Assembly: GCA_942492865.1 (NCBI GenBank)
Contig: OW818650.1
Span: 87,892 to 151,891, forward strand
Length of the DNA: 64,000 nucleotides
Direction of reading: 5' to 3'
Source of the DNA: an uncultured Bacteroidales bacterium
GTDB lineage: Bacteria > Bacteroidota > Bacteroidia > Bacteroidales > VadinHA17
In this document: positions 9,198 to 23,956 of the stretch, in pieces
How the letters are laid out: every line of letters starts with the position of its first letter
How positions within the stretch are numbered: position 1 is the stretch's first letter
Position numbers and translations under genes: made by a program
Notes under the pieces: generated by a model
What the model was told of the DNA's origin: nothing
What the model saw: the letters and a program-made list of their open reading frames with translations, nothing else
Database searches by the model: none

Positions 9198-10535
9198 TTA
9201 TTTTAATGAATTATTAAAGTCAAGTTTTACTACCATTACGGTACCAGACATTTCATTCGCTGGCAGACTCATCAGCCGCAGGTATTTCTTATGCTCAATA
9301 TGGTCGCTCGGACTAAGATCAACAACACAATCGATCTTCTTACCATTATTCAGCAGCACAGCTTTTTCAGGAAGTATGTCAAGCGGTTTGAGCTTAAACC
9401 CATTACCCGGCAATCCCTTATTGAAATGAAGGAATATTGTTTTGTTATTTCCCGTGACCTGAACATCCCCGCCTGCTGTAAATGACGACTGTACCGGATA
9501 CTTAAATGATTCTTCCACCAACTTATACCACAGCCCTAACCGTTTAAGTATTTCTTTCGATTCTCCCGGTATAAGACCCTCCGAAGTCGGGCCGACGTTA
9601 AGCAGATAATTGGCTCCTTTTGAAAGATACCTGTCGATGCTTCTTTCAAGATGGAGATCAGAATAGTATGTTTCGTCCTTTTTATAACCCCAGCTTTCCA
9701 TCCCTACCGACTGGCATGCCTCAGTAGGCCTTGTTATTGTCCCTGCTTCCGCAGCTGCATCATAATCCCGCTCGGGTGTGCCGAAATCTCCGTCATCAAA
9801 CCCTCGGTTGTTAATAACAGCAGCCGGTTGCATTTTTCTTATCATTTCATTTATCGAACGGTCCTTATGCAGGGGGACATTCATGTCCCACCAGAAACCA
9901 TGGATCTTACCATAATTGGTGCAAAGCTCTTTAACCTGCGCCTTAAGAAATTCCATATACCTTTCCCAGTCAGGATGATCACCTTCTTCAGGTGCCGGCA
10001 GTTCATGATGCCTGCCCTGGTTGGGATAATCGGGATGATTCCAGTCGGCTATTGAATAATAAAGGCAAAGCGGAACATTTCTTTTATGGCAGGCATCTGA
10101 CAACATTCCTATAATATCTTTCCTGTAAGGTGTATTTATGGTACTGAATTTTGTCTGATTTGTATCCCAGAGGCAAAAACCATCATGATGTTTAGTAGTA
10201 ATGGTAATGTACTTCATGCCTGCCATTTCCATTATGTCGAGCCATTCTTCAGGATTGAATTTTTTGGGATTCCACTGGCCGGCCAGCTTTACATATTCTG
10301 AACGGGGTACCCTTGCCCTCCACTGGTGCTGCTCGTGCCAGGCCGGTATGGAATACAATCCCCAGTGAATGAACATACCATACCTTTTTTCAAAAAACCA
10401 GTCGCGTTCATCCCCGAATCGCTTTACCGATCCTTTCTGATCGCCGAATAATATATCTCGTGATGTCGTCCCTCTTAAATACAATGGAGCTGCAGCTAGG
10501 GCTGAAGCCGCTTTTATCATCTGGCGTCGTTTCAT
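9198..10535 (-). CDS. Alpha-L-fucosidase (GH29-like) with a Tat/Sec-type signal
   Basis: 'YGMFIHWGLYSIPAW', 'TKHHDGFCLWD' and 'FWWDMN' blocks are characteristic of GH29. The N-terminus 'MKRRQMIKAASALAAAPL' is signal-like. Confidence 0.8.
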   Translation of the reverse strand: MKRRQMIKAASALAAAPLYLRGTTSRDILFGDQKGSVKRFGDERDWFFEKRYGMFIHWGLYSIPAWHEQHQWRARVPRSEYVKLAGQWNPKKFNPEEWLDIMEMAGMKYITITTKHHDGFCLWDTNQTKFSTINTPYRKDIIGMLSDACHKRNVPLCLYYSIADWNHPDYPNQGRHHELPAPEEGDHPDWERYMEFLKAQVKELCTNYGKIHGFWWDMNVPLHKDRSINEMIRKMQPAAVINNRGFDDGDFGTPERDYDAAAEAGTITRPTEACQSVGMESWGYKKDETYYSDLHLERSIDRYLSKGANYLLNVGPTSEGLIPGESKEILKRLGLWYKLVEESFKYPVQSSFTAGGDVQVTGNNKTIFLHFNKGLPGNGFKLKPLDILPEKAVLLNNGKKIDCVVDLSPSDHIEHKKYLRLMSLPANEMSGTVMVVKLDFNNSLK

Positions 10536-10558: not shown

Positions 10559-11275
10559 TCAGAACCTTCCAAATATGGAATATTTCTCAGTATTGCAAAA
10601 TATTGATGAATATACGAATAACCCGGAAATATTTGTCTCCATTTTCCTTTCAAGGTGAAGAACAGGCTGATCTTTTTTTATCCGGAGGAACCGGCTGATC
10701 TTTTTTGCTGCCGGGATTGCTTTGATCCTCTGCTCACCTCCCTTTATTTCAACCTGGTAATTTTCGCGGAGGATATGAAAAAGGGACCTGTTCTCAAACT
10801 GGCGTGATGTGATACGTGGGAGATTTATATTGCCAATATAACTTACGTCATAAAAGATCGGAACATCTTCAAGCAGTCTTATCCGTTCCATATAGATGCA
10901 ACCTGATTCGATCTCAAGCTCTGAAAGAGGGAACATAAAATCATCGGGCCACCTTATCAGCACAGGTTTAACGATAATACGTGTCTTAAGATTCCGGTCG
11001 CCAACGGCGGAGGTTGTACCTGAAACCGAAAGAATTCCAATCTCCCGGGGAAGGCTGTGCACTATGCTGCCTTTTCCCTGGTGCTTCCTTATATATCCGT
11101 CATTGGCAAGGGATGCAAGCGATTGTCTTACAGTCGGCCGTGTCAATGAGTAGATCCGGCACAGCTCATTTTCAGAAGGAAGCAGATCTCCTTCCCTGTA
11201 AACCCCGTCGGTTATATGCTTACGGAGCATTTCGTACAATCTTCTGTACCGGGGAATATTTCCGGGTTGAGTCAT
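10559..11275 (-). CDS. GntR-family transcriptional regulator (HutC subfamily, UTRA effector domain)
   Basis: N-terminal winged HTH 'LPSENELCRIYSLTRPTVRQSLASLANDGYIRKHQGKGSIV' plus a ~150-aa UTRA-like C-terminus. Confidence 0.8.
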   Translation of the reverse strand: MTQPGNIPRYRRLYEMLRKHITDGVYREGDLLPSENELCRIYSLTRPTVRQSLASLANDGYIRKHQGKGSIVHSLPREIGILSVSGTTSAVGDRNLKTRIIVKPVLIRWPDDFMFPLSELEIESGCIYMERIRLLEDVPIFYDVSYIGNINLPRITSRQFENRSLFHILRENYQVEIKGGEQRIKAIPAAKKISRFLRIKKDQPVLHLERKMETNISGLFVYSSIFCNTEKYSIFGRF

Positions 11276-11308
11276 TATTAATAAAATTATGTAAATATAA
11301 AATTGTTT

Positions 11309-11324
11309 ACTTGTAAATACAAGT
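11309..11324. promoter_or_regulatory. Candidate GntR operator: palindrome ACTTGTA-AA-TACAAGT
   Basis: Perfect 7-bp arms around a 2-nt centre, containing a GT...AC core. Sits just upstream of a TAnnTTTG box in the divergent gntR/E2 intergenic region. The half-site ACAAGTTAAA recurs at 11402-11411. Confidence 0.35.
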
Positions 11325-11332
11325 TAAATTAA

Positions 11333-11340
11333 TATTTTTG
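11333..11340 (+). promoter_or_regulatory. Candidate Bacteroidota -7 promoter element (TAnnTTTG) for the E2-led operon
   Basis: TATTTTTG matches TAnnTTTG. It lies 97 nt upstream of the ATG at 11437, with a cTTG about 20 nt upstream as a possible -33 element. Confidence 0.3.
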
Positions 11341-11436
11341 TAACGCTTAATACAACAATGGTTAGCGTACATTCATAAAATTGTTCTTACTGCTTATTAT
11401 AACAAGTTAAAATAAACCAATCAATTCATTCAAAAA

Positions 11437-12660
11437 ATGGCAACCCCCGTTATAATGCCGAAACAGGGACAATCGGTAGAGACCTGCATCATTTCAAAAT
11501 GGTTCAAAAAGGCCGGCGACAGCGTCTCAACAGGTGACATTCTTTTATCTTATGAAACTGATAAAGCATCCTTCGATCTTGAATCACCGGCAGGTGGCAC
11601 CTTGCTCGATGTCTTTTTCGAGGATGGATCAGAAGTCCCGGTTCTGGAAAATGTGGCTGTGATAGGCAATCCCGGTGAAAAAACCGACATCTATCGTCCC
11701 GGAAGCTCATCAGCCTCAGCTGTAACCACTCCGGATGTTGCCAAAGATGAAAAAACAGCTGTAATAACAACTTCCGCAGAAAACATTACTTCTCAGCCTG
11801 GCAGCAGGATCAGGATCTCTCCCAGGGCTAAAACACTGGCCAGGGCCAAAGGGATCAGGTACTCCGGCATAACAGGTTCAGGTCCGTACGGCAGGATAAT
11901 AATCAAAGACATCGAAAACTTTGCTTCAGGAACATCTGCTCCGGTAAACACTTCAGCTAGTGAAGGTGAATATTCTGAACATCCGCTGAGCAATGTAAGA
12001 AAGCTGATTGCCAAAGCGATGCACTCCTCATTACAGAATTCTGCCCAGCTGACACATCACATGAGCGCAGATGTAAGAAGGCTGCTGGAGGCCAGACGCA
12101 GGATAAAGGAAAGCATTAAGAACGGAACTCCGGCACAGGACATCACCCTGAACGATATGATATGCTGGTGTGTGATCAGGGCGCTCGAAAAACTTCCTGA
12201 GATCAACAGTCATTTTCTTGGCGACAAGATCAGGAATTTCAATACAGTACATCTCGGATTTGCAGTGGATACCCAGCGCGGGCTTTTGGTACCGGCATTG
12301 AGGAATGCCTCAGGAATGGACCTCGCAACCTTATCCAGGGAGCTTAAATCGATTGCCGATTCGTGCAGAAAGGGAAGCATCAGCCCCGAGCTTATTCAAA
12401 GCACCGCAGCTACATTTACCGTTTCCAATCTCGGCAATTACGGGGTTGAAATGTTTACACCTGTGATCAACCTGCCTCAATCAGGAATACTGGGGGTTTG
12501 CACCATAATTAACAGGCCGGCCGATCTTGGTAACAGCACATTCGGCTTCGTTCCCTACATAGGACTGTCACTGACCTACGATCATAGGGCCATAGATGGT
12601 GGTCCTGCAACACTGTTTCTGAAAGAAATTAAAGATCAGATTGAGAAATTTACTTTATGA
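11437..12660 (+). CDS. Dihydrolipoamide acyltransferase (E2) of a 2-oxoacid/acetoin dehydrogenase-type complex
   Basis: Lipoyl domain with 'ETDKASFDLESPAGG' (lipoyl-Lys), a peripheral subunit-binding segment 'RISPRAKTLARAKGI', and catalytic 'LTYDHRAIDGGPA'. Confidence 0.85.
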   Translation: MATPVIMPKQGQSVETCIISKWFKKAGDSVSTGDILLSYETDKASFDLESPAGGTLLDVFFEDGSEVPVLENVAVIGNPGEKTDIYRPGSSSASAVTTPDVAKDEKTAVITTSAENITSQPGSRIRISPRAKTLARAKGIRYSGITGSGPYGRIIIKDIENFASGTSAPVNTSASEGEYSEHPLSNVRKLIAKAMHSSLQNSAQLTHHMSADVRRLLEARRRIKESIKNGTPAQDITLNDMICWCVIRALEKLPEINSHFLGDKIRNFNTVHLGFAVDTQRGLLVPALRNASGMDLATLSRELKSIADSCRKGSISPELIQSTAATFTVSNLGNYGVEMFTPVINLPQSGILGVCTIINRPADLGNSTFGFVPYIGLSLTYDHRAIDGGPATLFLKEIKDQIEKFTL

Positions 12661-12666
12661 ATATGA

Positions 12667-12698
12667 GGGTTTCAGTGTTTCAGGGTTTCAGGGTTTGC
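12667..12698. repeat. Four tandem octamers G(G/T)GTTTCA/G followed by a small GC-rich hairpin (12703-12720)
   Basis: Read directly: gggtttca gtgtttca gggtttca gggtttgc, then GGCGA-gcccggct-TCGCC. Lies in the 114-nt spacer between E2 and E1. Confidence 0.85.
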
Positions 12699-12774
12699 CT
12701 TCGGCGAGCCCGGCTTCGCCCCGGTTCAGAGTATCAGGTAACCATTTAAATAAAGACAAGTAAAACAAAATATT

Positions 12775-15243
12775 ATGCCCAGGAGTCAGAACATTTTTCC
12801 AGCGGATGTCCGCAAACCAAAATTCATTGAATTTGGCAAAATACCTGTTAATCAATACAATAAGACTATCGAGGAAGAGAAGAAAAATTTCTCCACCGCT
12901 GATTTTATAAGAATATTCCGCGATATGGTTGTAATAAGGGAGTTTGAAACAATGCTTAACCTTATTAAGACAACAAATGAGTACCAGGGTGTCAGTTACA
13001 ATCATCCCGGTCCGGCTCATCTTTCAATAGGTCAGGAAGCCTCAGCAGTGGGAATGGCCTATAATCTGAATGAAGAGGATTTTATCTTCGGATCTCACCG
13101 CAGTCATGGCGAGATAATTGCAAAAGGTCTGTCGGCAATAGATAAGCTGAGCGATGATAATTTATATGAAATTATGCGGAACTATTTTAATGGTTCAGCC
13201 CTGAGAGTTGTCGAGAAGGATTTTCACGGCGACATTAAAGATCTTGCAATTCAATTCCTTCTCTACGGATCGCTTGCTGAAATCTTTGCACGCAGAAACG
13301 GATTCAATAAAGGGCTCGGAGGATCAATGCATGCCTTCTTCACCCCTTTCGGAATATATCCCAACAATGCTATTGTAGGCGGTTCGGGTGATATCTCAGT
13401 TGGCGCTGCCCTTTATAAGAAGATCAACAGGAAACCGGGGATCATCGTTTGTAATATAGGTGATGCCTCCATGGGCTGCGGACCTGTATGGGAAGGTATT
13501 ACATTTGCCACCATGGACCAGTACAGGAGCCTGTGGGAAGGAGAATACAGGGGCGGGCTGCCTCTTATATTCAACTTCATGAATAATCAGTACGGCATGG
13601 GTGGACAGACCTGTGGAGAAACAATGGGCTATGATATCCTTGCAAGGGTTGGCGCCGGAGTAAATCCCGAGATGATGCATGCCGAGCGTATCGACGGCTA
13701 CAATCCTCTTGCAGTCATCGATGCCTTCAGTCGTAAGATGAAAATCATTAAGGAGAAAAAAGGACCTGTTCTTCTTGATACGCTAACCTACAGGATAAGC
13801 GGACACTCGCCTTCAGATGCCTCATCTTACCGGTCAAAGGAGGAAATTGAGGCATGGCAGAAGGAAGACTCCATAATTTCATACGGTAAATCACTTATCG
13901 ATGCGGGGATAGCGACCGTAGATCAGCTTGACGAGATCAAAAGCAATACCGTTGAAATGCTTGTTAATATCCTTAAGCTCAGCATTAACGATGATTTATC
14001 ACCAAGACTTAATCCTGATATTGAAAATGAAGATATCGGTTCAATGATGTTTTCAAATGTATCAGCTGACAAGATGGAAGAGAGAACTCCTGAAGTACTG
14101 ATACCGCTTGAAGAGAACCCAAGGGTAAAATCATTGAAGAATAAAGAAAGATATTTTAAAGGTAAGGATGGAAAGCCTGTCTCAAAAGCAAAGCTGTACC
14201 AGTTCAGGGATGGCCTTTTTGAAGCCATAATCGACAGGTTCTATAAAGATCCGACCCTTGCTGCCTGGGGTGAAGAGAACCGCGACTGGGGAGGAGCATT
14301 CGCCGTTTACCGCGGACTTACGGAAGCGTTGCCTTATAACAGGCTGTTCAACTCTCCCATCTCCGAAGGAGCTATTGTAGGAACCGCTGTTGGTTACGGA
14401 ATGTGCGGCGGTCGTGTCATTGCCGAGATTATGTATTGCGATTTTATCGGAAGGTCGGGTGATGAGATCTTTAACCAGCTGCCCAAATGGCAGGCAATGA
14501 GCGGTAATATCATTAAAATGCCCGTTGTGATAAGGGTCTCTGTCGGATCAAAATACGGCGCCCAGCACTCACAGGACTGGTCATCACTTACTGCCCATAT
14601 TCCTGGATTAAAAGTTGTTTTTCCCGCCACACCTTATGATGCTAAAGGATTAATGAACACAGCATTGCAGGGTACTGACCCTGTTATCTTCTTCGAAAGC
14701 CAGAGGGTCTACGACATAGGCGAGATGTTCCATACCGAAGGTGTACCTGAAGGATATTACGAAATTCCTTTCGGTGAGCCTGATATAAAAAGGGAAGGTA
14801 ATGACATCACAATCATTACTATAGGAGCAACCCTCTATACCGCCCTGAAGGCAGCTGATATCCTTGAACAGAATTATGGATTAAAGGCTGAAGTAATTGA
14901 TGCACGGTCGCTTGTACCATTCAATTATGAACCGGTAATTGAATCTGTTAAAAAAACCGGCAAGGTAGTCCTTGCCAGTGACGCGACTACCAGAGGTTCT
15001 TTCCTGAAAGAAATGGCTCAGACAATAACCGAACTGGCATTCGATTATCTAGATGCTCCTCCGGTCACTATCGGATCACGCAACTGGATCACTCCCGCCT
15101 ACGAGATGGAGGAATATTTCTTCCCGCAGCCCGACTGGATAATAGATGCAATTAATGAAAAAATCGTTCCGCTCAAAGGACACAGAAACCGGCAGGATTT
15201 CTCGGCTCAGAAAACGATTCAGCTGAACAAAGACGGCATTTAG
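12775..15243 (+). CDS. Fused E1 alpha-beta TPP-dependent dehydrogenase component (acetoin/pyruvate/branched-chain 2-oxoacid dehydrogenase type)
   Basis: 822 aa. The alpha part carries the TPP motif '[13 protein letters not shown]...[14 protein letters not shown]'. A ~100-aa charged linker follows. The beta part ('[11 protein letters not shown]...[15 protein letters not shown]', '[10 protein letters not shown]...[11 protein letters not shown]') resembles a transketolase-like Pyr/C domain. Confidence 0.85.
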
Positions 15244-15323
15244 AGATCTGAACGATAACATTACCCTGAACGTGAATCACATATATGCCTTTTTAATACC
15301 TTTGCTCTACAAATCCGAAAAGA

Positions 15324-16115
15324 ATGAACGATACAGTACAAAGGATCAGGGAAAAAACAGGTTTCATTATTGACATGGATGGTGTGATATACCATGGTAA
15401 CAAGCTGTTACCAGGCGTTCCTGAATTCATCGGCTGGCTTGAAAAGTCAGGAAAAAAGTATCTGTTCCTTACAAATTCAAGTGAGAGAACGCCGCGCGAG
15501 CTCCATGAGAAAATGCTGAGGCTGGGCATAGATATCGGAGAAGATCATTTCTATACAAGTGCTCTCGCAACAGCAAGTTTCCTTGCAAGCCAGAAAACAA
15601 ACGGAAGCGCTTATATAATAGGTGATGCAGGTCTTATACATGCACTTTACAGCGTGGGATACTCAAGCAATAACGTTAATCCCGATTATGTAGTGGTTGG
15701 GGAAACACATGGTTATAACTTTGAAAAAATAGAGTTAGCAATAAATCTTGTTCTGAAGGGAGCCAAGCTCATAGGAACAAATCCTGATATAACAGGTCCG
15801 GTTGAAAATGGAATAACACCTTCAACAAGAGCTCTTATTGCTCCTATTGAGATAGCAACCAACAGGAAGGCGTACTTTGTAGGCAAACCAAATCCACTGA
15901 TGATGCGCATCGCACTGAAGAAACTCGGGGTTCAACGGGAAGAAGCTATAGTTATAGGCGACAGGATGGATACCGATATCAGGTGCGGGCTCGAATCGGA
16001 GATAGACACACTTCTTGTTCTCAGCGGAATTACTGTGGCCAACGAGATAGATAATTTCCCCTACAAGCCCAGGTATATTCTAAATGGCGTTATTGATCTT
16101 GTGAGCAAAGCATGA
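15324..16115 (+). CDS. HAD-IIA subfamily sugar-phosphate phosphatase (NagD/AraL-like)
   Basis: 'GFIIDMDGVIYHGNKLLPG' (DxDG motif I), 'LFLTNSS' (motif II) and 'GDRMDTDI' (motif IV), with a 263-aa length typical of HAD-IIA. Confidence 0.7.
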   Translation: MNDTVQRIREKTGFIIDMDGVIYHGNKLLPGVPEFIGWLEKSGKKYLFLTNSSERTPRELHEKMLRLGIDIGEDHFYTSALATASFLASQKTNGSAYIIGDAGLIHALYSVGYSSNNVNPDYVVVGETHGYNFEKIELAINLVLKGAKLIGTNPDITGPVENGITPSTRALIAPIEIATNRKAYFVGKPNPLMMRIALKKLGVQREEAIVIGDRMDTDIRCGLESEIDTLLVLSGITVANEIDNFPYKPRYILNGVIDLVSKA

Positions 16116-16747
16116 CCGACCCTGAATATAAAACAGAACGAAAAAATGTCGCATATTTCATGAGGCGGCTCTACTCGCGCAATCTGACTACAACATCAGG
16201 CGGAAACATTAGCGTAAGGATAGACAGCACTATCATTGCCATAACCCCCTCGGCCACCGATAAAGGAAGGATGAGATGGAAAGAGGTTGGTTTGCTCACA
16301 ATGGAAGGAGAAAATCTTACCCCTGAATTGAAACCGTCAATGGAATCATTTATGCACCTTGCAGTTTACAGGAAGGATGCTGAAATAAAAGCCATTGTTC
16401 ATGCTCATCCGGTCTATGCAACTTCTTTCACTGCAATGAGATCGACTGTTAATACCAGTCTTACTGCAGAAGCAAGGGCTGTTTGCGGTGAGCCGGTATT
16501 TGTCCCATACGCACTTATGGGTACCATTGAACTTGCAGAACTTGCTGCCGGTAATATTGGAAAAGGAAACATCCTGCTCCTCGAAAATCATGGTATCTTG
16601 GCTGCAGGGAAGAATCTTACAGAGGCATTCGACAGGATTGAAGTTCTTGAGAATGCTGCCAAAATGACCCTGATTGTTGAATTTGCGGGAAAAAAGAGTG
16701 AGCTTGACAGTTCAAAAATAAGCCAGATAGATAAATTATTCAGATGA
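16112..16747 (+). CDS. Class II aldolase/adducin-fold protein (FucA/AraD/MtnB-like; the exact reaction is not resolvable by eye)
   Basis: 'SGGNISVR', 'PSMESFMHLAVY', 'IVHAHPVYAT' and 'LLENHGILAAG' give a Glu plus three His zinc-site pattern. The ATGA start/stop overlaps the upstream gene. Confidence 0.75.
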   Translation: MTDPEYKTERKNVAYFMRRLYSRNLTTTSGGNISVRIDSTIIAITPSATDKGRMRWKEVGLLTMEGENLTPELKPSMESFMHLAVYRKDAEIKAIVHAHPVYATSFTAMRSTVNTSLTAEARAVCGEPVFVPYALMGTIELAELAAGNIGKGNILLLENHGILAAGKNLTEAFDRIEVLENAAKMTLIVEFAGKKSELDSSKISQIDKLFR

Positions 16748-17388
16748 TAAAGGGAGTTCTCTTCGATATGGATGGCGTTCTGGTCGATTCGGAAGAATAT
16801 ATACGGAACGCTGCAATTATGATGTTCGCTGAGTATGGTATTAAGGCAGAACCTGAAGATTTTCTGCCATTTGTAGGCATGGGCGAGAACAGGTACCTTG
16901 GCGGCGTTGCGGCCAAATACGGGCTCGCAGCAGATATAGATATAATTAAGGCAAGAACATATTATTTGTACGGAGTCATTACCCATGGCAAGCTTAAGCC
17001 CCTCCCCGGCGCCAGGCAGTTTGTTGATAAATGTATTCAAAAAGGTCTCAGGATAGCACTGGCTTCGAGCGCCGACAGGATCAAGATTGAAATAAGCCTC
17101 AGGGAAACGGAAATTCCCCAGGAACTCTTTCATGCGATAGTAAACGGCCTTGATGTTGAAAATAAAAAACCATTCCCTGATATTTACCTGAAAGCCTGTG
17201 AACTGCTGGGACTCATACCGGAAGAATGTCTTGTAGCCGAAGATGCTGTAAGCGGGGTGGAAGCTGCAAAAAGAGCCGGCTGCAAATGTCTGGCCCTTAC
17301 AACATCATTTGACAGGACCCAACTAAGCAAGGCTGACTGGTTCTGCCACTTTCTCTCTGACGCACCCGCAGAAGCGCTGAACTGGTAA
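16744..17388 (+). CDS. HAD-IA family phosphatase (beta-phosphoglucomutase-like)
   Basis: 'VLFDMDGVLVDSE' motif I, 'ALASSA' motif II and 'AEDAVSGVEAAKRAG' motif III/IV. ATGA overlap with the upstream gene. Confidence 0.75.
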   Translation: MIKGVLFDMDGVLVDSEEYIRNAAIMMFAEYGIKAEPEDFLPFVGMGENRYLGGVAAKYGLAADIDIIKARTYYLYGVITHGKLKPLPGARQFVDKCIQKGLRIALASSADRIKIEISLRETEIPQELFHAIVNGLDVENKKPFPDIYLKACELLGLIPEECLVAEDAVSGVEAAKRAGCKCLALTTSFDRTQLSKADWFCHFLSDAPAEALNW

Positions 17389-17398
17389 ATCATTTAAA

Positions 17399-18403
17399 AT
17401 GAATAATATGGAAACAAGAAAACTCGGAAATACAGATCTCGAAATAACTGTTCTCGCATTCGGAGCATGGGCCATCGGAGGCTGGCTCTGGGGCGGAGCC
17501 GATTCTAATGATGCAATAAAAGCCATCGAAACGGCCGTCGATAACGGAATGACGACAATTGATACTGCTCCGGTATATGGATTTGGCCTGAGTGAAGAGC
17601 TTGTTGCAAAAGCTATTAAAGGTAAAAGAAGCAAGGTTCAGATCCTTACCAAGTTCGGACTGATATGGGACAGTAAGAGCGGTGTCTTTCATTTTTCATC
17701 AAAAGACAATTCAGGCAATGATATAGACCTTTATAAGTATTCTTCAAAGGCAAGGGTTATCAGCGATTGTGAAGAGAGCCTGCGGCGCCTAAACACCGAT
17801 TACATAGACCTTTTCCAGATCCACTGGCCCGATACGTCAACACCGGTTTCCGAAACAATGGAAGCGCTTCAGGAGCTTGTTGACAAGGGGAAGATCAGGG
17901 CTGGTGGAGTGTGTAACTACTCATCCGACCTTATGACAGAAGCTGCGAAATATTTCAATCTTGCTTCAAACCAGGTGCCATACAGCATGGTTAACCGTGA
18001 TATTGAAAAGAATGTTGTACCTGCATGCCTGTCAGGTAATATTGGCATACTGGCTTACAGCCCTCTCCAGAGAGGGTTGCTTACGGGCAAGATCAAACCA
18101 GGACATAATTTTAACGAAGGAGATAACCGGCCGGCAACCATCTTTTACAGGGAGCCTAACCTTTCTAATATCCTTGGTTTGCTCGAAAAGTTGAAGCCTG
18201 TTGCACACTCTCACAATGCAACGCTTGCCCAGATAGTCCTCAGCTGGACAGTCAGGCAGCCGGGTATTACATGTGCCCTGGCAGGGGCACGTAACACAAC
18301 ACAGGTTATGGACAATCTTGGCGCAATGAAATTCACCCTTAGCGATGACGAGATCAGTTATATTAACAAGCTGCTTGATGAATTTAAAATAATAAAATCA
18401 TAA
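17399..18403 (+). CDS. Aldo/keto reductase
   Basis: 'LGNTDLEITVLAFGAWAIGG', 'IDTAPVYGFGLSEELV', 'YIDLFQIHWPD', 'LAYSPLQRGLLTGK'. Confidence 0.8.
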   Translation: MNNMETRKLGNTDLEITVLAFGAWAIGGWLWGGADSNDAIKAIETAVDNGMTTIDTAPVYGFGLSEELVAKAIKGKRSKVQILTKFGLIWDSKSGVFHFSSKDNSGNDIDLYKYSSKARVISDCEESLRRLNTDYIDLFQIHWPDTSTPVSETMEALQELVDKGKIRAGGVCNYSSDLMTEAAKYFNLASNQVPYSMVNRDIEKNVVPACLSGNIGILAYSPLQRGLLTGKIKPGHNFNEGDNRPATIFYREPNLSNILGLLEKLKPVAHSHNATLAQIVLSWTVRQPGITCALAGARNTTQVMDNLGAMKFTLSDDEISYINKLLDEFKIIKS

Positions 18404-18407
18404 TGCA

Positions 18408-19652
18408 TTGAATAGTAAATATTTATCAGGCATGCCTGCTCCCGGCGAACTAAGCAAATATATGCCGGGCAAAAACTTACCCGCTTACCGTGAAGTTAAC
18501 TCTCACATCCATACACCTTATTCATTCAGTGCATTCGGTGATATGGGGACTGCCTTCAGAATGGCAAAGGATGAATCTGTTGATGTTCTGGGCATAAATG
18601 ATTTTTTTGTTACTGACGGTTATGATGCATTTCTGAGTGAATCGCTCAGGTACAATATCTTTCCTCTTTTCAATATTGAGTTTATAGGATTGCTTAAGGA
18701 AGAACAAAAAAAAGGTATCAGGATCAATGATCCCAATAATCCGGGCAGGATCTACTTTTGCGGTAAGGGTCTCGACTATCCGTTTAAAACTTCCCCTGCA
18801 GGAAAAAAACAGCTTGACGATGTTATAAATGAAAGCCAGGATCAGATTAAACAGATGATAGAAAAGCTCAACCTGCTATTGGTTTCTGCCAATACCAGGC
18901 ATAATCTTACATATCATGATATTAAGAAAAGATTTGCCCGGGAGCTTGTCCGCGAACGTCACCTGGCCAAAGCATTAAGAACACTTGCAGAAGAAAACTA
19001 CGGGACAGATGATGCCAGAATAAAATTTATTGAAATCCTCTATGGCGGAAAAAAATCAAAGGCAGGCTTCACAGACACTTCAGCTCTTGAAAATGAGATC
19101 AGGTCCAATCTTCTGAAATCGGGTGGCGCTGCTTTTATAGAAGAGAATGAAAATGCATTTCTTGATCTTTCAGCAATTAAAAATATAATTACCCGGTCAG
19201 GAGGAATACCATGCTACCCTGTGCTTCTTGATGATCCCAAAGGAAATTTCACTGAATATGAATCAGATCCTGAAAAGCTTTACAGTTCACTTGTAAAGAT
19301 GGACATAGGATGCATAGAACTTATCCCCGGAAGGAATGACCATACCATTTTGAAAAAATTTGTTGAATATTTTGATAATAAAGGGTTTATCATCCTCTTT
19401 GGAACTGAGCACAATACCCCTGAAATGATACCATTGAAAGTTTCTGCAAGGGGATCACAGCCTCTTGATCCGTCACTGAAAAAAACAGGATGGGAAGGTG
19501 CATGTGTTATTGCCGCCCATCAGTATCTGAGATCAAAGGGAACGGAAGGATACCTTTATAAAGATCATAAATCACGGAGAGATAAAAAAAGTGATTTTGT
19601 CACTCTTGGACAGAAGGTGATTGAATATTTTATTAATGAAAGAATCAAATGA
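18408..19652 (+). CDS. Uncharacterised protein with PHP-like (metal-dependent phosphoesterase) N- and C-terminal motifs
   Basis: 414-aa ORF (TTG at 18408; alternative ATG at 18432). 'NSHIHTPYSFSAF...VDVLGINDF' resembles the PHP HxH motif and 'ILFGTEHNTP' near the C-terminus is a candidate late His motif. The large middle region is unassignable. Confidence 0.4.
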   Translation: MNSKYLSGMPAPGELSKYMPGKNLPAYREVNSHIHTPYSFSAFGDMGTAFRMAKDESVDVLGINDFFVTDGYDAFLSESLRYNIFPLFNIEFIGLLKEEQKKGIRINDPNNPGRIYFCGKGLDYPFKTSPAGKKQLDDVINESQDQIKQMIEKLNLLLVSANTRHNLTYHDIKKRFARELVRERHLAKALRTLAEENYGTDDARIKFIEILYGGKKSKAGFTDTSALENEIRSNLLKSGGAAFIEENENAFLDLSAIKNIITRSGGIPCYPVLLDDPKGNFTEYESDPEKLYSSLVKMDIGCIELIPGRNDHTILKKFVEYFDNKGFIILFGTEHNTPEMIPLKVSARGSQPLDPSLKKTGWEGACVIAAHQYLRSKGTEGYLYKDHKSRRDKKSDFVTLGQKVIEYFINERIK

Positions 19653-21619
19653 AACCTGAAATTAAAGACCTCATTGACATATCACGTTTTTACGGGGTTA
19701 ACAAAGACTTTGTAATTGCGGGAGGGGGAAATACCTCCTTTAAGGATGAGCATACTATCTGGGTCAAAGCCAGCGGGCAGTCTCTGGCCGAAATGACTGA
19801 AGAGGGATTCGTAGCTCTTGACAGGGAAAAGCTGAGGGGGATGTCAGAGAAAAGATATCCTGTTGACCCCGTTGTAAGGGAAGAGCAGGTAAAGGCCGAC
19901 ATGGAAGCCTGCATTACCGATGGAAAGGGCAAAAGGCCTTCTGTAGAGACCTCCCTTCATGAACTCATCAGCTATAAATTCGTTGTACATCTCCATCCTG
20001 CCCTGGTAAACGGGATACTCTGCAGCAGGAGTGCCAAAAATATTACCCTTCAGCTTTTTGGCGACACGATACTTTTCATACCATATACCGATCCCGGATT
20101 TACTTTATTCAAGAAGCTTGAAGAGGAGATGAAAATCTACAGGCAGAAATTTGAATCAGAACCGAAGATTATATTTCTCGAAAATCATGGCGTTTTCGTC
20201 GGAGCTGATACAACTGAGGAAATAAGGCAGATCTACTCGGGAATTATAGGTAAAATTTCTGAAAAGGTAACCCCGCTAAACAATATTGAGAATCTGCCTT
20301 ATGATCCAGCCCTTCACACCGTTTTACCTGTTTTAAGGATGCTGCTTTCGGGAGAGAGGCCGGGAGTAATAAGGTGTCGACATAATACATTGATCTCTAA
20401 GTTCTACCAGAGCCAGCAGGAGTTCAATAAAATCTCTCTTCCGCTTATTCCCGATAATATTGTCTACTGCAAGCCGCATGTAATGTACATTGAACAATCC
20501 GCAACTGCCGCAAGAATACTTGATTCTTTCCGTCATCAGTTACCCAGGTTCATCAGCGAATATGGATATTCACCAAAAGTTGTGGTTATCAAAAATATGG
20601 GAGTCATCGCCTTTGATGAAAGCTATCTGAAAGCGGAGACAGTTCTTAATGTTTACGAAGATCTGATTCTTACAAGCTATTATGCTTCACTTTTTGGCGG
20701 AATAAAGTTCATGACGCCACAGGAAGCAGCATTTATAGATAAATGGGAAGTTGAGAGCTACAGGAGAAAAGTATCGGGGTCAGCAGCCAAAGATAATATC
20801 CTCAGCAACAAAATTGCTGTTGTAACGGGTGGCGCAAGGGGGTTTGGAGCAGGTATTGCCGGTGATCTTTTCAAACTGAACATGAATGTGGTCATTGCCG
20901 ATATGGACGAAGATACAGGCGCTGCCTTCACCAGGTCACTGATCGCTGAAAAATCGGTAAACAAAGCTTTGTTTGTAAAAACCGATGTCTCTGATCCCAA
21001 AGCAGTGAAGGCTTTGATCATAAGATGCGTAAGCGAGTTCGGAGGATTGGATCTGATGGTGAGTAACGCGGGTGTTCTGAAGGCAGGAGGGCTCGATGAA
21101 ATGGAGCCGGAAGGATTCGGTCAATTGACACAGGTCAATTATAACGGATATTTTCATTGTGTAAAATACTCATCAGAAGTGATGAGGATCCAGAACCAGG
21201 AAAAACCTGATTATACAGCAGACATAATACAGATAAACTCAAAATCAGGACTAAGGGGCAGCAACCGTAATTTTGCCTATTCCGGATCCAAATTCGGGGG
21301 CATAGGTCTTACCCAGTCTTTTGCCCTTGAGCTGGCTCCATTCAGGATAAAGGTAAATTCGATCTGCCCCGGGAATTTTTATGAGGGCCCGTTATGGTCC
21401 GATCCGCATAACGGTCTTTTCATCCAGTATCTTAAAGCCGGCAAAGTGCCGGGCGCAAAAACTATTGAAGATGTAAGAAAATTCTATGAAGACCAGGTAC
21501 CATTGAAACGCGGCTGTAAACTTGAAGATGTTATGAAAGCATTATTATACATCATAGACCAGGAGTACGAAACAGGGCAGGCCGTACCGGTTACCGGAGG
21601 TCAGATCATGTTGGGTTAA
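19649..21619 (+). CDS. Bifunctional class II aldolase-like / short-chain dehydrogenase (RhaEW/YuxG-type)
   Basis: 656 aa. The N-terminal ~380 aa is aldolase-fold ('GGGNTSFK', 'PSVETSLHELI', 'VVHLHPALVNG', 'FLENHGVFVGA'). The C-terminal SDR has 'VVTGGARGFGAGIA' and the catalytic 'YSGSK'. ATGA overlap with the upstream gene. Confidence 0.8.
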   Translation: MKPEIKDLIDISRFYGVNKDFVIAGGGNTSFKDEHTIWVKASGQSLAEMTEEGFVALDREKLRGMSEKRYPVDPVVREEQVKADMEACITDGKGKRPSVETSLHELISYKFVVHLHPALVNGILCSRSAKNITLQLFGDTILFIPYTDPGFTLFKKLEEEMKIYRQKFESEPKIIFLENHGVFVGADTTEEIRQIYSGIIGKISEKVTPLNNIENLPYDPALHTVLPVLRMLLSGERPGVIRCRHNTLISKFYQSQQEFNKISLPLIPDNIVYCKPHVMYIEQSATAARILDSFRHQLPRFISEYGYSPKVVVIKNMGVIAFDESYLKAETVLNVYEDLILTSYYASLFGGIKFMTPQEAAFIDKWEVESYRRKVSGSAAKDNILSNKIAVVTGGARGFGAGIAGDLFKLNMNVVIADMDEDTGAAFTRSLIAEKSVNKALFVKTDVSDPKAVKALIIRCVSEFGGLDLMVSNAGVLKAGGLDEMEPEGFGQLTQVNYNGYFHCVKYSSEVMRIQNQEKPDYTADIIQINSKSGLRGSNRNFAYSGSKFGGIGLTQSFALELAPFRIKVNSICPGNFYEGPLWSDPHNGLFIQYLKAGKVPGAKTIEDVRKFYEDQVPLKRGCKLEDVMKALLYIIDQEYETGQAVPVTGGQIMLG

Positions 21620-21670
21620 TAAACTGTAAGGAAGACGGGGATGCGGATCATTAAAATGATAAAGTAAACT

Positions 21671-22933
21671 ATGAAAACCAAGGCGGTAAGAATATACGGA
21701 AAGAAAGACCTCAGACTTGAGGAATTTGAACTTCCGGCCATAAAAGATGATGAGATCCTTGCTCAGGTTATCTCTGACAGCATCTGCATGTCGTCGTATA
21801 AAGCCGCCATGCAGGGAGCTGATCATAAGAGGGTGCCAGACGACATTCACGTAAATCCGACAATGATCGGTCATGAATTTGCGGGTGTGATACTTGAGGT
21901 GGGAAAGAAATGGCAGCATAAATTCAAAAGAGGACAGAAATATTCCATACAGCCAGCAATGAGCCACATGGGAACCCTGAATGCCCCGGGTTACTCTTAC
22001 AGGTATATTGGTGGCGATGCCACACATATCGTTATTCCAAATATTGTTATGGAGGCAGATTGCCTTCTAACCTACAACGGAGAAGCATTTTTCCCGGCAT
22101 CGCTTTCCGAACCAATGTCATGCATTGTGGGAGCTTTCCATGCAAGCTATCATGTTCCACCCGGTACATATAATCATGAGATGGGTATCCGTGAGGGCGG
22201 GAAGATGGCTATTCTTGCCGGTGTCGGACCCATGGGTCTCGGAGCTATCGATTATGCACTTCATAACGACCGTAAACCGGGAACCATTGTAGTAACTGAC
22301 ATTGACGACAACCGCCTTTCAAGAGCAGCATGTTTGTTTACTCCCGAGCATGCGCAGCAGCAGGGAGTCAGATTGATGTATGTGAATACCGGAAATATGA
22401 ATGACCCGGTGAAGCATCTCAGGGAGCTCTCGGGAGGAACCGGTTTTGATGATGTTTTTGTTTTTGCACCGGTTAAACAGGTTGTGGAACAGGGCGATGC
22501 AATACTGGGTTTTGATGGCTGCCTCAATTTTTTTGCAGGTCCGACAAATCCTGAATTCAAGGCAGAATTCAACTTTTATAATGTCCATTATGCTTTTACC
22601 CATATTGTCGGCACATCGGGAGGGAACACCGATGATATGATTGAATCATTGAAGATGATGAGCGAAGGAAGGATCAATCCGGCTGTAATGGTTACACATG
22701 TGGGAGGGCTCGATGCAGTAGTGGACACAACCCTTAACCTGCCTCAGATCCCGGGCGGCAAGAAGCTTATTTATACAAATATCTCAATGCCTCTTGTCTC
22801 ACTCTATAAACTTAAGGAACTTGGGGCCCATAATAGATTATACGCAGGTTTGCACGAAATTGTTTCAAAAAACAACTTCATCTGGAGCCTCGAAGCCGAG
22901 AAGTACCTGCTTGAGAATGCAAACCCGATCTGA
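21671..22933 (+). CDS. Zinc-type medium-chain dehydrogenase/reductase, long form (sorbose-1-phosphate-reductase-like size)
   Basis: 420 aa. 'SDSICMSSYK' (Cys ligand), 'GHEFAGVILEVG', Rossmann 'ILAGVGPMGLGAIDYA'. Confidence 0.65.
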   Translation: MKTKAVRIYGKKDLRLEEFELPAIKDDEILAQVISDSICMSSYKAAMQGADHKRVPDDIHVNPTMIGHEFAGVILEVGKKWQHKFKRGQKYSIQPAMSHMGTLNAPGYSYRYIGGDATHIVIPNIVMEADCLLTYNGEAFFPASLSEPMSCIVGAFHASYHVPPGTYNHEMGIREGGKMAILAGVGPMGLGAIDYALHNDRKPGTIVVTDIDDNRLSRAACLFTPEHAQQQGVRLMYVNTGNMNDPVKHLRELSGGTGFDDVFVFAPVKQVVEQGDAILGFDGCLNFFAGPTNPEFKAEFNFYNVHYAFTHIVGTSGGNTDDMIESLKMMSEGRINPAVMVTHVGGLDAVVDTTLNLPQIPGGKKLIYTNISMPLVSLYKLKELGAHNRLYAGLHEIVSKNNFIWSLEAEKYLLENANPI

Positions 22934-23011: not shown

Positions 23012-23956
23012 TTATCGGGATGGTAGATGATGGTTTGTTCTTCTGTATTTCTCAGCAAACGGCATCGAGATATAATTATCATAGCTCAGGCATACATCTG
23101 TTGCAAATCCAACAGCGGTCGAGATGATTTTCTCCCATTCCTCTTTATTCAGCTTTGCCAGCTCATTGGTTTTGATGCCGCTTTTATAGATGGAAGTGAT
23201 CATTCCGGCATTGAAATTATCGCCTGCTCCTATTGTGCTTACCGGCTCTATCTTTTGAACGGGGAACCTTCCGGAAAATGATGGTGTGTGCACAAAAACA
23301 CCATTTGTATTGGCAGTGTAAACCATAAGCGGACAATAGTCTTTTATCTCCTTAAATGCATCATCGGGTGTTGATGCATGAAATATATTTTTGAAATCCT
23401 CATCTGATCCCCTTACCAGATTCGCCATTTTCATATTCTCGATGATCATAGGTTTAAGATCGGGCAATTCAGAAAGATGCGACCTTCTGAAATTGGGATC
23501 GTAGATTACCAGCGCTCCATTTTCCTTCGCGCTGTGGATGAAATTTCTGAAGCCCTCCCTGATTTCGGCCCAGATTGAATAATATGATCCGAAAAGCAGA
23601 ATATCATCTTTCCCTATGACCGGGTAATTCATTGTTTTTTTCCCGGTGTTACGGTTCTTGTAAAATGTATAATTAGCATCATTTCTTTCATTCAGAAATG
23701 CAAGAGCCAGCGATGTATTTCCATCATCATACCTGTTTACGGATTTTGTATTTACTCCATTTTCCATAAGGAACCTGTCAACAAGGGTTCCTGTATCATC
23801 CTTACCATATTCACTTATAAAATATACAGGAAGGCCAATCCTGCCCATTGATACCACACTATTCAGCATTGCGCCACCGGGTTTTGCAGTCTGAGGCTGA
23901 TCATTCTTAAAAATAATATCAAGAAGGGTCTCCCCTATTGCATAGATCTTTCTCAT
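23012..23956 (-). CDS. PfkB-family carbohydrate kinase (fructokinase-like)
   Basis: 'GGAMLNSVVSMGRIG' and the C-terminal 'TIGAGDNFNAGM' PfkB signature. Confidence 0.8.
   Translation of the reverse strand: MRKIYAIGETLLDIIFKNDQPQTAKPGGAMLNSVVSMGRIGLPVYFISEYGKDDTGTLVDRFLMENGVNTKSVNRYDDGNTSLALAFLNERNDANYTFYKNRNTGKKTMNYPVIGKDDILLFGSYYSIWAEIREGFRNFIHSAKENGALVIYDPNFRRSHLSELPDLKPMIIENMKMANLVRGSDEDFKNIFHASTPDDAFKEIKDYCPLMVYTANTNGVFVHTPSFSGRFPVQKIEPVSTIGAGDNFNAGMITSIYKSGIKTNELAKLNKEEWEKIISTAVGFATDVCLSYDNYISMPFAEKYRRTNHHLPSR

Follow-up and report, generated by a model that had tools for sequence, protein, structure and literature searches.

The locus considered here lies in a 64,000-nucleotide stretch of contig OW818650.1 (assembly GCA_942492865.1, uncultured Bacteroidales bacterium), hereafter the window, and raises the question why the dehydrogenase (E1) and the lipoyl-bearing acyltransferase (E2) of a multienzyme complex are encoded in one operon with aldolase-family proteins, phosphatases and sugar-type dehydrogenases. 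As an answer, to which we give a probability of roughly 40%, we propose an acetoin-dehydrogenase-like complex whose substrate, a methyl-ketone or alpha-hydroxyketone, would stem from the 6-deoxy end of fucose or rhamnose and whose product would be acetyl-CoA. This proposal builds on the gene content, the synteny, a candidate operator and promoter, the family to which E1 belongs, and the dihydrolipoyl dehydrogenase (E3) and deoxyhexose genes observed in relatives. An original prediction made from the letters of the window had listed nine same-strand genes from 11437 to 22933 with ATGA overlaps at 16112, 16744, and 19649. All coordinates were reproduced from the list of open reading frames (ORFs), the gene order and the domain calls of the nine genes are each borne out by Pfam and NCBIfam, and the quoted motifs ETDKA, DHRAIDG, and GDAS...NNQYGMGG were all found in the translations. 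The regulator gene and the operon are composed as follows.

10559..11275, minus strand: GntR/HutC-family regulator, GntR helix-turn-helix domain (PF00392) and UTRA effector domain (PF07702)
11437..12660, plus strand: E2 dihydrolipoyl acyltransferase (PF00364, PF02817, PF00198)
12775..15243, plus strand: fused E1 alpha-beta, 822 aa, dependent on thiamine pyrophosphate (TPP) (PF00676, PF02779, PF02780)
15324..16115, plus strand: HAD-IIA (NagD/AraL-type) phosphatase, accessory (TIGR01460, 140 bits versus a cut-off of 100)
16112..16747, plus strand: class II aldolase-family protein, FucA-like, 211 aa, accessory (PF00596, 149 bits)
16744..17388, plus strand: HAD-IA (beta-PGM/YqaB/HxpB-like) sugar-phosphate phosphatase, accessory (TIGR01509, 67 bits versus 29; TIGR02009, 116 bits)
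17399..18403, plus strand: aldo/keto reductase (AKR), YdjG-like, accessory (PF00248, 257 bits; NF049922, 246 bits versus a cut-off of 550)
18408..19652, plus strand: putative PHP-fold metal-dependent phosphoesterase, 414 aa, core (no Pfam match; match of the predicted structure)
19649..21619, plus strand: fusion of a class II aldolase domain and a short-chain dehydrogenase/reductase (SDR), 656 aa, RhaEW architecture, core (PF00596 and PF00106)
21671..22933, plus strand: long zinc-dependent medium-chain dehydrogenase/reductase (MDR) of polyol/secondary-alcohol type, 420 aa, core (PF08240 and PF00107)

The intergenic gaps along the operon amount to 114, 80, -4, -4, 10, 4, -4, and 51 bp.

A scan with one genome per species recovered at least 560 relatives of E1. 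Locus counts refer to the best 80 (E1 73-86% identical), all of which are metagenome-assembled genomes (MAGs) of uncultured Bacteroidales or Bacteroidia from soil, fen, lake sediment, and digesters. Upstream counts are based on the 59 loci with enough upstream sequence, downstream counts on the 54 loci with at least 9.5 kb downstream. Across these loci the conserved core consists of the GntR gene, followed by E2-E1 and, further downstream, by PHP, aldolase-SDR, and MDR. GntR was observed in 59/59 and E2 in 58/59 loci; the PHP gene is present in 51/54, the aldolase-SDR fusion in 41/54, and the MDR in 37/54 loci. In most of the loci in which the fusion or the MDR was not seen, 5-8 kb of RND-efflux genes are inserted after E1 and shift the two genes beyond the fetched flank. 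The accessory genes are scarcer (HAD-IIA 46, small aldolase 46, HAD-IA 28, and AKR 14 of the 80 loci). E1 is the most conserved gene, and the gene order is kept while E2 drops to 47% and the PHP gene to 48% identity and the genes on either side vary. The original prediction had left it to a neighbourhood analysis whether this E1/E2 clade is recurrently linked to the aldolase, HAD, and PHP genes. The linkage recurs in 80 species genomes, and due to this conservation of the arrangement it is real and more than a chance juxtaposition.

The RND set, composed of an outer-membrane factor, a HlyD-type adaptor, and an AcrB-type pump, is located on the same strand between E1 and HAD-IIA in 13-14 related species (L005, 12576-17813; L007, L009, L010, L013, L014, L016, L018, L024, L026, L032, L040, and L049). 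Such a set is odd for a catabolic operon and may export a toxic intermediate or product. In a rhamnose-type locus (L078, 14741-16045) a 434-aa ORF with the SDR half alone replaces the fusion, which could reflect a truncation, a frameshift, or a genuine split. In L065 and L079 an MtlD-like (mannitol-1-phosphate-5-dehydrogenase-like) gene and a gene for a 398-aa PfkB kinase directly follow E1, and in L080 the MtlD-like gene alone. The MtlD-like protein adds a third family of polyol-phosphate dehydrogenases to the SrlD-like SDR and the Tdh/GatD/IolM-like MDRs.

A housekeeping 2-oxoacid dehydrogenase, resembling branched-chain 2-oxoacid dehydrogenase (BCKDH) or pyruvate dehydrogenase (PDH) as annotated at JGI, with inherited synteny and no functional link to its neighbours, is largely refuted by the synteny and appears very improbable. 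It is in agreement with the public annotation of E1 as "2-oxoisovalerate dehydrogenase E1 component" or "alpha-ketoacid dehydrogenase subunit alpha/beta", and with the much stronger conservation of E1 (73-86%) compared to its neighbours, which is common in housekeeping enzymes. L063, L065, L068, L070, L071, and L080 moreover keep GntR-E2-(E3)-E1 without PHP, aldolase-SDR, and MDR directly downstream. However, the link to sugar genes survives independent rearrangements (RND insertion, E3 insertion, and the fucK, rhaB, and GH29 variants) and is found in another phylum as well. The translational overlaps and the lack of terminator-like sites within the operon also speak against it, as does the regulatory region, of which the following two elements were identified.

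11309..11324, no strand: candidate operator, 16 bp, perfect palindrome ACTTGTA-AA-TACAAGT, within the 161-bp divergent spacer
11333..11340, plus strand: -7 promoter element TATTTTTG, which fits TAnnTTTG, 9 bp downstream of the operator

Judged by its sequence, the regulator combines an N-terminal winged helix with a C-terminal UTRA domain, as expected for the GntR/HutC family, and the palindrome is situated near the putatively regulated promoter. The candidate GntR-binding site, which can also be written ACTTGTAAATACAAGT, has one exact match in the window, compared to 0.18 expected at up to two mismatches. Each of 51 Bacteroidales loci holds a single copy of the pattern ACTTGTANNTACAAGT, always within the GntR-E2 spacer, so that in these loci E2-E1 share a candidate operator and promoter with a divergent sugar-type regulator, at odds with an unconnected housekeeping enzyme. 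TAnnTTTG is the Bacteroidetes -7 promoter consensus and, by pattern matching, follows 8-9 bp after the palindrome on the operon strand in 48 of 52 occurrences. Due to the position of the palindrome just before the -7 box, we predict an operator inside the promoter driving E2-E1. An operator-like site with two mismatches (ACTTTTAAATTCAAGT) between apbE and nqrF (window 29701-29716) probably occurs by chance. Termination in the spacer 12661-12774, which would have divided the operon into two halves, had been raised earlier as a possibility; a pattern scan, in itself weak evidence, detected no plus-strand terminator-like hairpin in this or the other operon spacers. The tRNA and Rfam scans of the window revealed no RNA element in the spacers.

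Concerning the reaction of the complex, E1 combines the domains E1_dh, Transket_pyr, and Transketolase_C in one chain, and its TPP motif GDAS...NNQYG corresponds to the family pattern GDG-X(25-30)-NN. The PDH equivalog models were all missed (TIGR03182, 181 bits versus 394; NF006667, 236 versus 321). In a tblastn search of E1 against 72,556 plasmids, with an E-value <=1e-150 defining a close match, 16 plasmid records of Rhizobium, Agrobacterium, and Pleomorphomonas gave close matches with 51-53% identity, 15 of them near full length. The remaining plasmid matches were all at or below about 35% identity, the next-best being acetoin operons of the order acoX-acoA-acoB-acoC with a butanediol dehydrogenase and a sigma-54 activator gene. 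A neighbour-joining tree (17 taxa, 648 columns, 300 bootstraps) united the fused E1s of Bacteroidales and Hyphomicrobiales in one clade with 100% bootstrap support, outside the AcoAB, PDH, and BCKDH references. In the trimmed alignment the identity to the window E1 was 57% for the sister clade, 34-35% for AcoAB, 25-30% for PDH, and 28% for BCKDH. The BCKDH reference, which is the second most distant of all, a further point against the housekeeping explanation, originates from an operon that also encodes an acyl-CoA dehydrogenase and a thiolase, a context that the window locus lacks. The alpha part reads SHRSHGE in the E1 clade, THRGHGH in AcoA, and TYR in the PDH and BCKDH references; the motif HRxHG is common to the E1 clade and AcoA, and the Tyr of the YR motif of PDH and BCKDH is a His here. 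AcoAB are the closest characterised relatives, yet the window E1 falls outside the AcoA/AcoB clade. Among 1.84 billion representatives searched, the ~820-aa fused architecture forms roughly 20-25 clusters at 50% identity, ranging from 62% down to about 36%.

From its sequence, E1 is neither a PDH nor a BCKDH but belongs to a distinct clade of ~820-aa fused proteins. A position inside the housekeeping PDH or BCKDH clade, which the original prediction had named as the result that would contradict it, was not observed: E1 forms a separate clade, and both E1 and E2 score below every equivalog cut-off. Its idea of a module that converts an alpha-hydroxy-carbonyl or a diketone to an acyl-CoA is in line with the closest characterised relatives of E1, the acetoin dehydrogenase E1s.

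Considering this relationship to AcoAB, the complex could also be a genuine acetoin/2,3-butanediol dehydrogenase, or one for a different small acyloin or diketone (methylglyoxal or acetol, for instance), that was recruited beside sugar genes, with the MDR and the SDR as butanediol or acetoin dehydrogenases; we regard this as improbable. The SDR half does match acetoin reductase/butanediol dehydrogenase models (115-127 bits), but it matches sorbitol-6-phosphate dehydrogenase far more strongly (227 bits, E 2e-44). An acetolactate-synthase-like TPP enzyme is encoded 8 kb upstream here and in 13 related loci and another one in L097, the YdjG-like AKR is annotated within the methylglyoxal reductase family, and Prokka labels the Pleomorphomonas genes acoB and acoC. 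Nevertheless, the identity to AcoAB is just 34-35% with the clade outside AcoAB, and no AcoR/sigma-54, AcoX, or budC-type context was seen in the 80 Bacteroidales or in the alphaproteobacterial loci. The constant partners, i.e., sugar kinases, sugar-phosphate-type regulators, aldolase-family proteins, and phosphatases, are not needed for acetoin catabolism.

E2 is composed of one lipoyl domain with the lipoyl-Lys motif ETDKA, a peripheral-subunit-binding domain for E3/E1, and a catalytic domain with the catalytic His in DHRAIDG (family pattern DHRxxDG). Its top NCBIfam match is the PDH E2 (TIGR01349) with 256 bits versus a cut-off of 445. A tblastn search across the 64-kb window found none of the genes for E3, lipA, fucI/K, and rhaA/B/D. 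The original prediction had stated that E3, sugar isomerase, and transporter are missing from the operon. Indeed none is located inside, but kinases and a transporter are situated immediately outside, and the absence of E3 is not a property of the system as a whole: in 9 related loci of a more distant sub-clade (E1 73-77% identical) a true dihydrolipoyl dehydrogenase gene sits between E2 and E1. The encoded protein (451 aa; Pyr_redox_2 and Pyr_redox_dim) passes TIGR01350 with 496 bits versus a cut-off of 409. The missing local E3 is a lineage-specific feature. Due to the E3-binding domain of the window E2 and the E3 genes of these 9 relatives, a conventional three-component complex is expected, with E3 supplied from elsewhere in the genome.

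The Hyphomicrobiales sister clade is a clue absent from the original prediction. In seven alphaproteobacterial loci E1 is invariably followed by a free lipoyl protein (77-80 aa), a SorC-type sugar-binding regulator, and an alpha/beta-fold hydrolase of the AcoC type, which corresponds to the C-terminal half of that protein (NF011457, 153 bits). The kinases of these loci are xylulokinase (TIGR01312, 463 bits versus a cut-off of 380) or PfkB kinases; other, varying neighbours encode an IMPase-like phosphatase, a psicose-3-epimerase-like TIM barrel, sugar ABC transporters, RbsD/FucU, and LipA. In L097 a different acetolactate-synthase-like TPP enzyme (7036-8811) is encoded divergently from the E1 module. 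Homologues of PHP, aldolase-SDR, and MDR were not found by tblastn in the alphaproteobacterial loci, and no aldolase is located nearby. Common to both phyla are E1, a lipoyl carrier, a sugar kinase, and a sugar-phosphate-type regulator. The housekeeping pdhABC of Rhizobium johnstonii 3841 (RL2241-43) is essential, whereas pRL80081 is dispensable (PMC5118466). The latter is the hydrolase of the sister module on plasmid pRL8, which comprises pRL80079-80083 with a regulator, a kinase, this hydrolase, the lipoyl protein, and E1. Due to the separate, essential pdhABC and the dispensability of pRL80081, the family is not a PDH in this strain. The RbsD/FucU gene pRL80090, called "fucose operon protein", is required in the rhizosphere (bioRxiv 10.1101/2020.05.07.082560).

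The family placement of E1, the AcoC-type partner of the sister clade, and the constant occurrence of kinases and sugar- or polyol-phosphate dehydrogenases together favour an acyloin-type C-C cleavage over a 2-oxoacid decarboxylation.

Two further plasmids hold E1/E2 sets related to acetoin dehydrogenase in sugar contexts. On Shinella plasmid piSHIWSD5 (L091, 1555-8244) a fused E1 and an AcoC-type E2 are located beside a class II aldolase-family protein, a DUF1537 kinase, i.e., a four-carbon acid-sugar kinase, and an acyl-CoA dehydrogenase, and on Sinorhizobium chiapasense pB (L088, 286-7983) the order SorC, oxidoreductase, E1 alpha, E1 beta, E2, LpdA, and class II fructose-bisphosphate aldolase was observed. 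The recruitment of such complexes to sugar-derived ketones may therefore be more general.

The nature of the sugar is suggested by the genes beside the regulator. In the window these are a fucosidase gene and an oxidoreductase gene.

9198..10535, minus strand: GH29 alpha-L-fucosidase (PF01120, 241 bits), 23 bp downstream of the regulator gene
7754..9076, minus strand: Tat-signal Gfo/Idh/MocA oxidoreductase (PF01408 and PF19051), N-terminus MSRRRFLGTAAVG, which contains SRRRFLG

PF01120 and the SRRRFLG N-terminus agree with the order proposed earlier, a divergent GntR/HutC regulator followed by GH29 and a Tat-exported Gfo/Idh/MocA protein. The gene of the latter ends the transcription unit of the regulator in the window genome, and the top NCBIfam match of this oxidoreductase is glycoside 3-dehydrogenase with 109 bits versus a cut-off of 750. 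In other genomes fucK or rhaB takes the place beside the regulator. An L-fuculokinase gene (fucK; TIGR02628, 498 bits versus a cut-off of 471) occurs in 5 loci, in 4 of which fucI is located downstream. In 4 loci a rhamnulokinase-like FGGY kinase (459 bits versus a cut-off of 528) is encoded, one of them with RhaD (NF002963, 285 bits versus 170) and another with RhaA (PF06134, 583 bits). GH29 is present in the window and in two further loci (L001 and L032). In total, deoxyhexose genes adjoin the regulator in the window and in 11 of the 80 loci; their arrangements are of three independent kinds. This recurrent link is the strongest functional clue; the original prediction missed these genes beside the regulator in the relatives (fucK/fucI, rhaB/rhaA/rhaD, and GH29).

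Aligned to the FucA structures 4c25 and 6btd, the 211-aa aldolase-family protein retains PSmESfMH, HaH, and NHG, i.e., the Glu acid/base and the three His ligands. The FucA models gave 122 bits versus 250 and 119 versus 264, and near-equal scores were obtained for the OtnC decarboxylase (111 bits) and an epimerase (107 bits), all below the cut-offs. The aldolase-SDR fusion contains PF00596 at residues 7-191 and PF00106 at residues 388-577, with the motifs GGGNTS, PSVETSLHE, HLH, NHG, and YSGSK. It scored 249 bits versus 568 with the RhaEW model TIGR02632 and <=231 bits with the PRK08324 models (cut-offs >=634), and it is about 25% identical to annotated bifunctional aldolase/SDRs. The top PDB match of its SDR half is the sorbitol-6-phosphate dehydrogenase 5o3z (E 2e-44; model score 227 bits). 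The 420-aa MDR, which is 61-88% identical across loci, shows weak matches to IolM, ketose reductase, and sorbitol dehydrogenase.

In case of the PHP-like ORF, neither a Pfam match nor, by sequence search, a PDB chain was found, so that its fold had to be taken from a structure model. An AlphaFold model (36 homologues in the alignment, pLDDT 82.6) was matched by Foldseek to 9etk, 3e0f, 3o0f, and 2yb1 (E 3e-8 to 2e-7, probability 1.0, TM score 0.63-0.66 on target length), which are PHP trinuclear-metal phosphoesterases. The PHP fold, a distorted TIM barrel, that had been suggested for this protein is supported by the predicted structure, and some homologues carry a precomputed PF02811 match. Invariant residues of the family are HxH (H25/H27), E83, D267, H327, and H363, and the protein holds a helical insertion of about 120 aa. 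The public annotation of the gene starts 8 codons downstream of the TTG at 18408 (P0121, 406 aa). Its genomic context points to a sugar-phosphate rather than a nucleotide substrate.

Directly beyond the operon two further genes of sugar metabolism are located.

23012..23956, minus strand: PfkB-family sugar kinase, divergent member, convergent with the operon (PF00294; top NCBIfam match fructokinase, 112 bits versus 450)
24092..25126, plus strand: second zinc-dependent MDR with similarity to Tdh, idonate 5-dehydrogenase, IolM, and GatD (PF08240 and PF00107; NCBIfam 131-204 bits, all below cut-off)

A PfkB kinase neighbours the operon in 29/54 loci with enough flank and the second MDR in 25 loci.

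On this basis the locus would be a repressor-controlled catabolic locus for 6-deoxyhexose-type sugars, i.e., L-fucose, L-rhamnose, or phosphorylated derivatives. The HutC-type GntR protein is predicted to bind the palindrome ACTTGTA-NN-TACAAGT upstream of the -7 box, and this operator likely controls both units, the nine-gene operon and that of the regulator, which is GntR-fucosidase-oxidoreductase here and GntR-fucK or GntR-rhaB in relatives. The kinases, the class II aldolase-family proteins, and the dehydrogenases (the SDR half of the fusion, the 420-aa MDR, and the AKR) would prepare the substrate of E1 from the CH3-CHOH end of the sugar. From this methyl-ketone or alpha-hydroxyketone the TPP-dependent fused E1 would take a two-carbon acetyl unit, pass it to the lipoyl arm of E2, and the unit would be released as acetyl-CoA, while a dihydrolipoyl dehydrogenase from elsewhere in the genome would re-oxidise the lipoamide with NAD+. 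The PHP and HAD phosphatases may strip phosphate at one step or drain dead-end sugar phosphates. For the direction of flux, the acetyl-CoA product, the substrate of E1, and the role of each dehydrogenase and phosphatase we rely on homology and context.

It is tempting to speculate further that the fused E1 and the lipoyl E2 constitute a "deoxy-ketose(-phosphate) : lipoamide oxidoreductase" that cleaves the sugar skeleton directly in the manner of acetoin, although we consider this version rather doubtful. Here, kinases together with the SrlD-like SDR, the GatD/Tdh-like MDRs, or the MtlD-like enzyme would shift the carbonyl next to the terminal methyl group, so that a methyl ketol CH3-CO-CHOH-R arises, e.g., a 1-deoxy-ketohexose 6-phosphate or a 5-keto-6-deoxyketose 1-phosphate. 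E1 would yield acetyl-lipoamide, then acetyl-CoA, and an aldose phosphate or an oxo-tetronate-type fragment, which the class II aldolase-family domains might epimerise, decarboxylate, or split. If true, this would be a lipoate-dependent route for 6-deoxyhexoses without lactaldehyde or propanediol and the first sugar-skeleton substrate, i.e., a new substrate class, for E1/E2 complexes, and the Hyphomicrobiales module with its kinase, E1, lipoyl protein, and AcoC-like hydrolase but no aldolase would be the minimal form.

Several observations weigh against an acetoin-dehydrogenase-like complex acting on a deoxyhexose-derived ketone. The E1 reference tree is small (17 taxa) and distance-based, and its references are all plasmid records. 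The window E2 is a canonical PDH-type acyltransferase, and the top HMM matches of both E1 and E2 are PDH families, although below the cut-offs. Adjacency to deoxyhexose genes is a minority arrangement (11/80 loci plus the window); the commonest neighbour of the regulator, in 32/80 loci, is the Tat-exported Gfo/Idh/MocA oxidoreductase. The PHP protein and the two HAD phosphatases are left without an explained role. Finally, both aldolase-family proteins retain the FucA-type catalytic residues, which is compatible with an ordinary cleavage to dihydroxyacetone phosphate (DHAP) and lactaldehyde and subsequent oxidation to pyruvate.

The last point leads to the main rival explanation, a PDH dedicated to the pathway, which we judge unlikely. 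The aldolases would cleave fuculose-1-phosphate or rhamnulose-1-phosphate to DHAP and L-lactaldehyde, the SDR half of the fusion would oxidise lactaldehyde to L-lactate as RhaEW does, and after conversion of lactate to pyruvate E1/E2/E3 would form acetyl-CoA, CO2, and NADH. Precedents exist, since RhaEW-type fusions give DHAP and L-lactate, and the rhamnose regulon of some genomes includes lactate dehydrogenase genes, by which pyruvate is reached (PMC3870299). The fusion of the window has the RhaEW architecture with intact motifs, but it is merely about 25% identical to annotated RhaEW-type proteins, and no lactate dehydrogenase-type gene is present in the operon or the 64-kb window. Likewise, the canonical E2 layout (lipoyl, peripheral-subunit-binding, and catalytic domain) and PDH families as top matches are set against the wide failure of all three equivalog cut-offs (181 vs 394, 236 vs 321, and 256 vs 445 bits), the closer relationship of E1 to AcoAB, and its Aco-type HRxHG. 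The fucose and rhamnose genes beside the regulator in 11 loci would suit such a pathway; it provides, however, no role for the PHP protein, the two HADs, the two MDRs, the AKR, the PfkB kinase, or the MtlD-like/PfkB pair of relatives, and the sister clade occurs in aldolase-free sugar-kinase loci of bacteria that already hold an essential PDH.

Other routes were set aside. An inositol (IolM-type) pathway showed similarities of just 18-65 bits, and a phospho-diketone cleavage of the AI-2/Lsr type and an MtnB-type dehydratase route were both unsupported. In case of 2-keto-3-deoxy-fuconate as a 2-oxoacid substrate, the loci carry the phosphorylative genes fucI/K and rhaA/B and lack oxidative-pathway genes.

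Several other genes of the window were noted. Just past the operon (25297-27229) a ribokinase (TIGR02152, 357 bits versus a cut-off of 300) and a GRP/ureide-permease-like sugar transporter are encoded, neither of which was found by tblastn in the 80 related loci. A 3-keto-disaccharide hydrolase (DUF1080) gene follows within 25297-28596 and, together with the Tat-exported Gfo/Idh/MocA protein (7754-9076), hints at a periplasmic sugar oxidation. Upstream (3446-5044, plus strand) lies the gene for the acetolactate-synthase-like TPP enzyme (NF006187, 311 bits versus a cut-off of 509), ~8 kb from the operon and kept in 13 related loci; a second acyloin-forming or -cleaving TPP enzyme close to the E1 module may be more than a coincidence. 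The original prediction had taken KorAB at 60009-62871 as a sign of an anaerobe, in which a dedicated lipoyl complex would be surprising. A two-subunit 2-oxoacid:ferredoxin oxidoreductase is indeed present, but the argument is weak, since a Na+-NQR operon (ApbE, NqrF-A; 28675-35541) and futalosine-type menaquinone biosynthesis genes (53117-54656) in the same window point to a quinone-linked respiratory chain. An alternative aldehyde-oxidising system, an aldehyde:ferredoxin oxidoreductase (AFOR_N/C; 42793-44946), adjoins a tungstate/molybdate-type ABC transporter, MoeA, a MoaA-like radical SAM protein, and a ThiF/MoeB-like protein (37951-45703). A 993-aa protein (56837-59818, minus strand) has the unusual architecture of a response-regulator receiver domain fused to a PPDK_N domain (PEP-utilising, ATP-grasp).

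Among the sugars of plant cell walls, mucins, and microbial exopolysaccharides, fucose and rhamnose take a major share. The known bacterial degradation routes of both end alike in DHAP and L-lactaldehyde, and anaerobes usually reduce lactaldehyde to 1,2-propanediol. To our knowledge, E1/E2 complexes act solely on 2-oxoacids and acetoin. No description of the present system was found in the literature linking E1/E2 or acetoin dehydrogenase to fucose, rhamnose, sugar-phosphate catabolism, or the pRL8 genes. The analysis suggests a familiar multienzyme architecture in an undescribed metabolic role and a so far undescribed conversion of fucose- or rhamnose-type sugars to acetyl-CoA. If true, this would be a new carbon- and energy-conserving branch of deoxy-sugar degradation, with ATP gained from acetyl-CoA through acetate, and a sugar-derived substrate would broaden the chemistry of E1/E2 complexes. 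Soils, fens, sediments, and digesters harbour the carrier organisms in abundance, and metagenome proteins with 82-93% identity number in the thousands. Due to their annotation as 2-oxoisovalerate or alpha-ketoacid dehydrogenase, MAG reconstructions now misplace the family in amino-acid catabolism. Since the sister module resides on pRL8 of the tractable Rhizobium johnstonii 3841, its function is directly testable.

Compared to known systems, the complex has the E1/E2 domain architecture of PdhABC-Lpd and BkdAA/AB/B, including the lipoyl Lys in DKA, the peripheral-subunit-binding domain, and DHRxxDG. Unlike PDH and BCKDH, the window proteins score below every equivalog cut-off, E1 shows 25-30% identity and a His instead of the Tyr of YR, and the genes belong to a regulator-linked, non-housekeeping operon. 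The PHP protein resembles the PHP phosphoesterases RNase AM/TrpH, Cv1693, and BAD_1165 in its modelled fold and N-terminal HxH, but it differs by the lack of sequence similarity and the ~120-aa helical insertion. The fucose operon of Bacteroides thetaiotaomicron is fucRIAKUP, whose repressor FucR (BT1272) belongs to the GntR family (PMC3878776). In both cases a GntR-family regulator occurs with genes of fucose metabolism (here GH29 and a FucA-like aldolase, in five relatives fucK, and in four of these fucI). The window, however, carries no fucI, fucK, or fucP under the regulator; conversely, the named genes of fucRIAKUP do not include E2-E1, PHP, aldolase-SDR, MDR, and HAD, which stand in the operon here.

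RhaEW (YuxG) is a bifunctional enzyme that converts rhamnulose-1-phosphate to DHAP and L-lactate (PMC3870299). The 656-aa fusion shares with it the N-terminal class II aldolase-like and the C-terminal SDR part as well as the metal, acid-base, and YxxxK motifs, and no other aldolase-family gene was found in the examined stretch of L079, where rhaA and rhaB are located. In contrast to RhaEW, the SDR half alone scores 227 bits with the sorbitol-6-phosphate dehydrogenase model, near the RhaEW score of the whole fusion (249 bits), and the gene always follows that of the PHP phosphoesterase with overlapping stop and start codons.

The closest system is that of AcoA/AcoB/AcoC/AcoL, which likewise combines a TPP-dependent E1 of the heterotetramer lineage with a lipoyl-bearing E2 and with an E3 that is either shared or dedicated. 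Among the compared references AcoAB have the highest identity to the window E1 (34-35%) and HRxHG in common with it, and the E2 of the sister clade is, like AcoC, of the lipoyl plus alpha/beta-hydrolase type, although split into two proteins. The differences concern both protein and context. The E1 subunits of the Aco system are separate, whereas alpha and beta are fused here to 822 aa with extra N-terminal and internal segments. Aco operons contain AcoR/sigma-54, AcoX, and butanediol dehydrogenase genes, which the window and the 80 related loci lack; here, E1 and E2 are encoded among sugar kinases, aldolase-family proteins, and phosphatases under a GntR/HutC regulator, or SorC in the Alphaproteobacteria.

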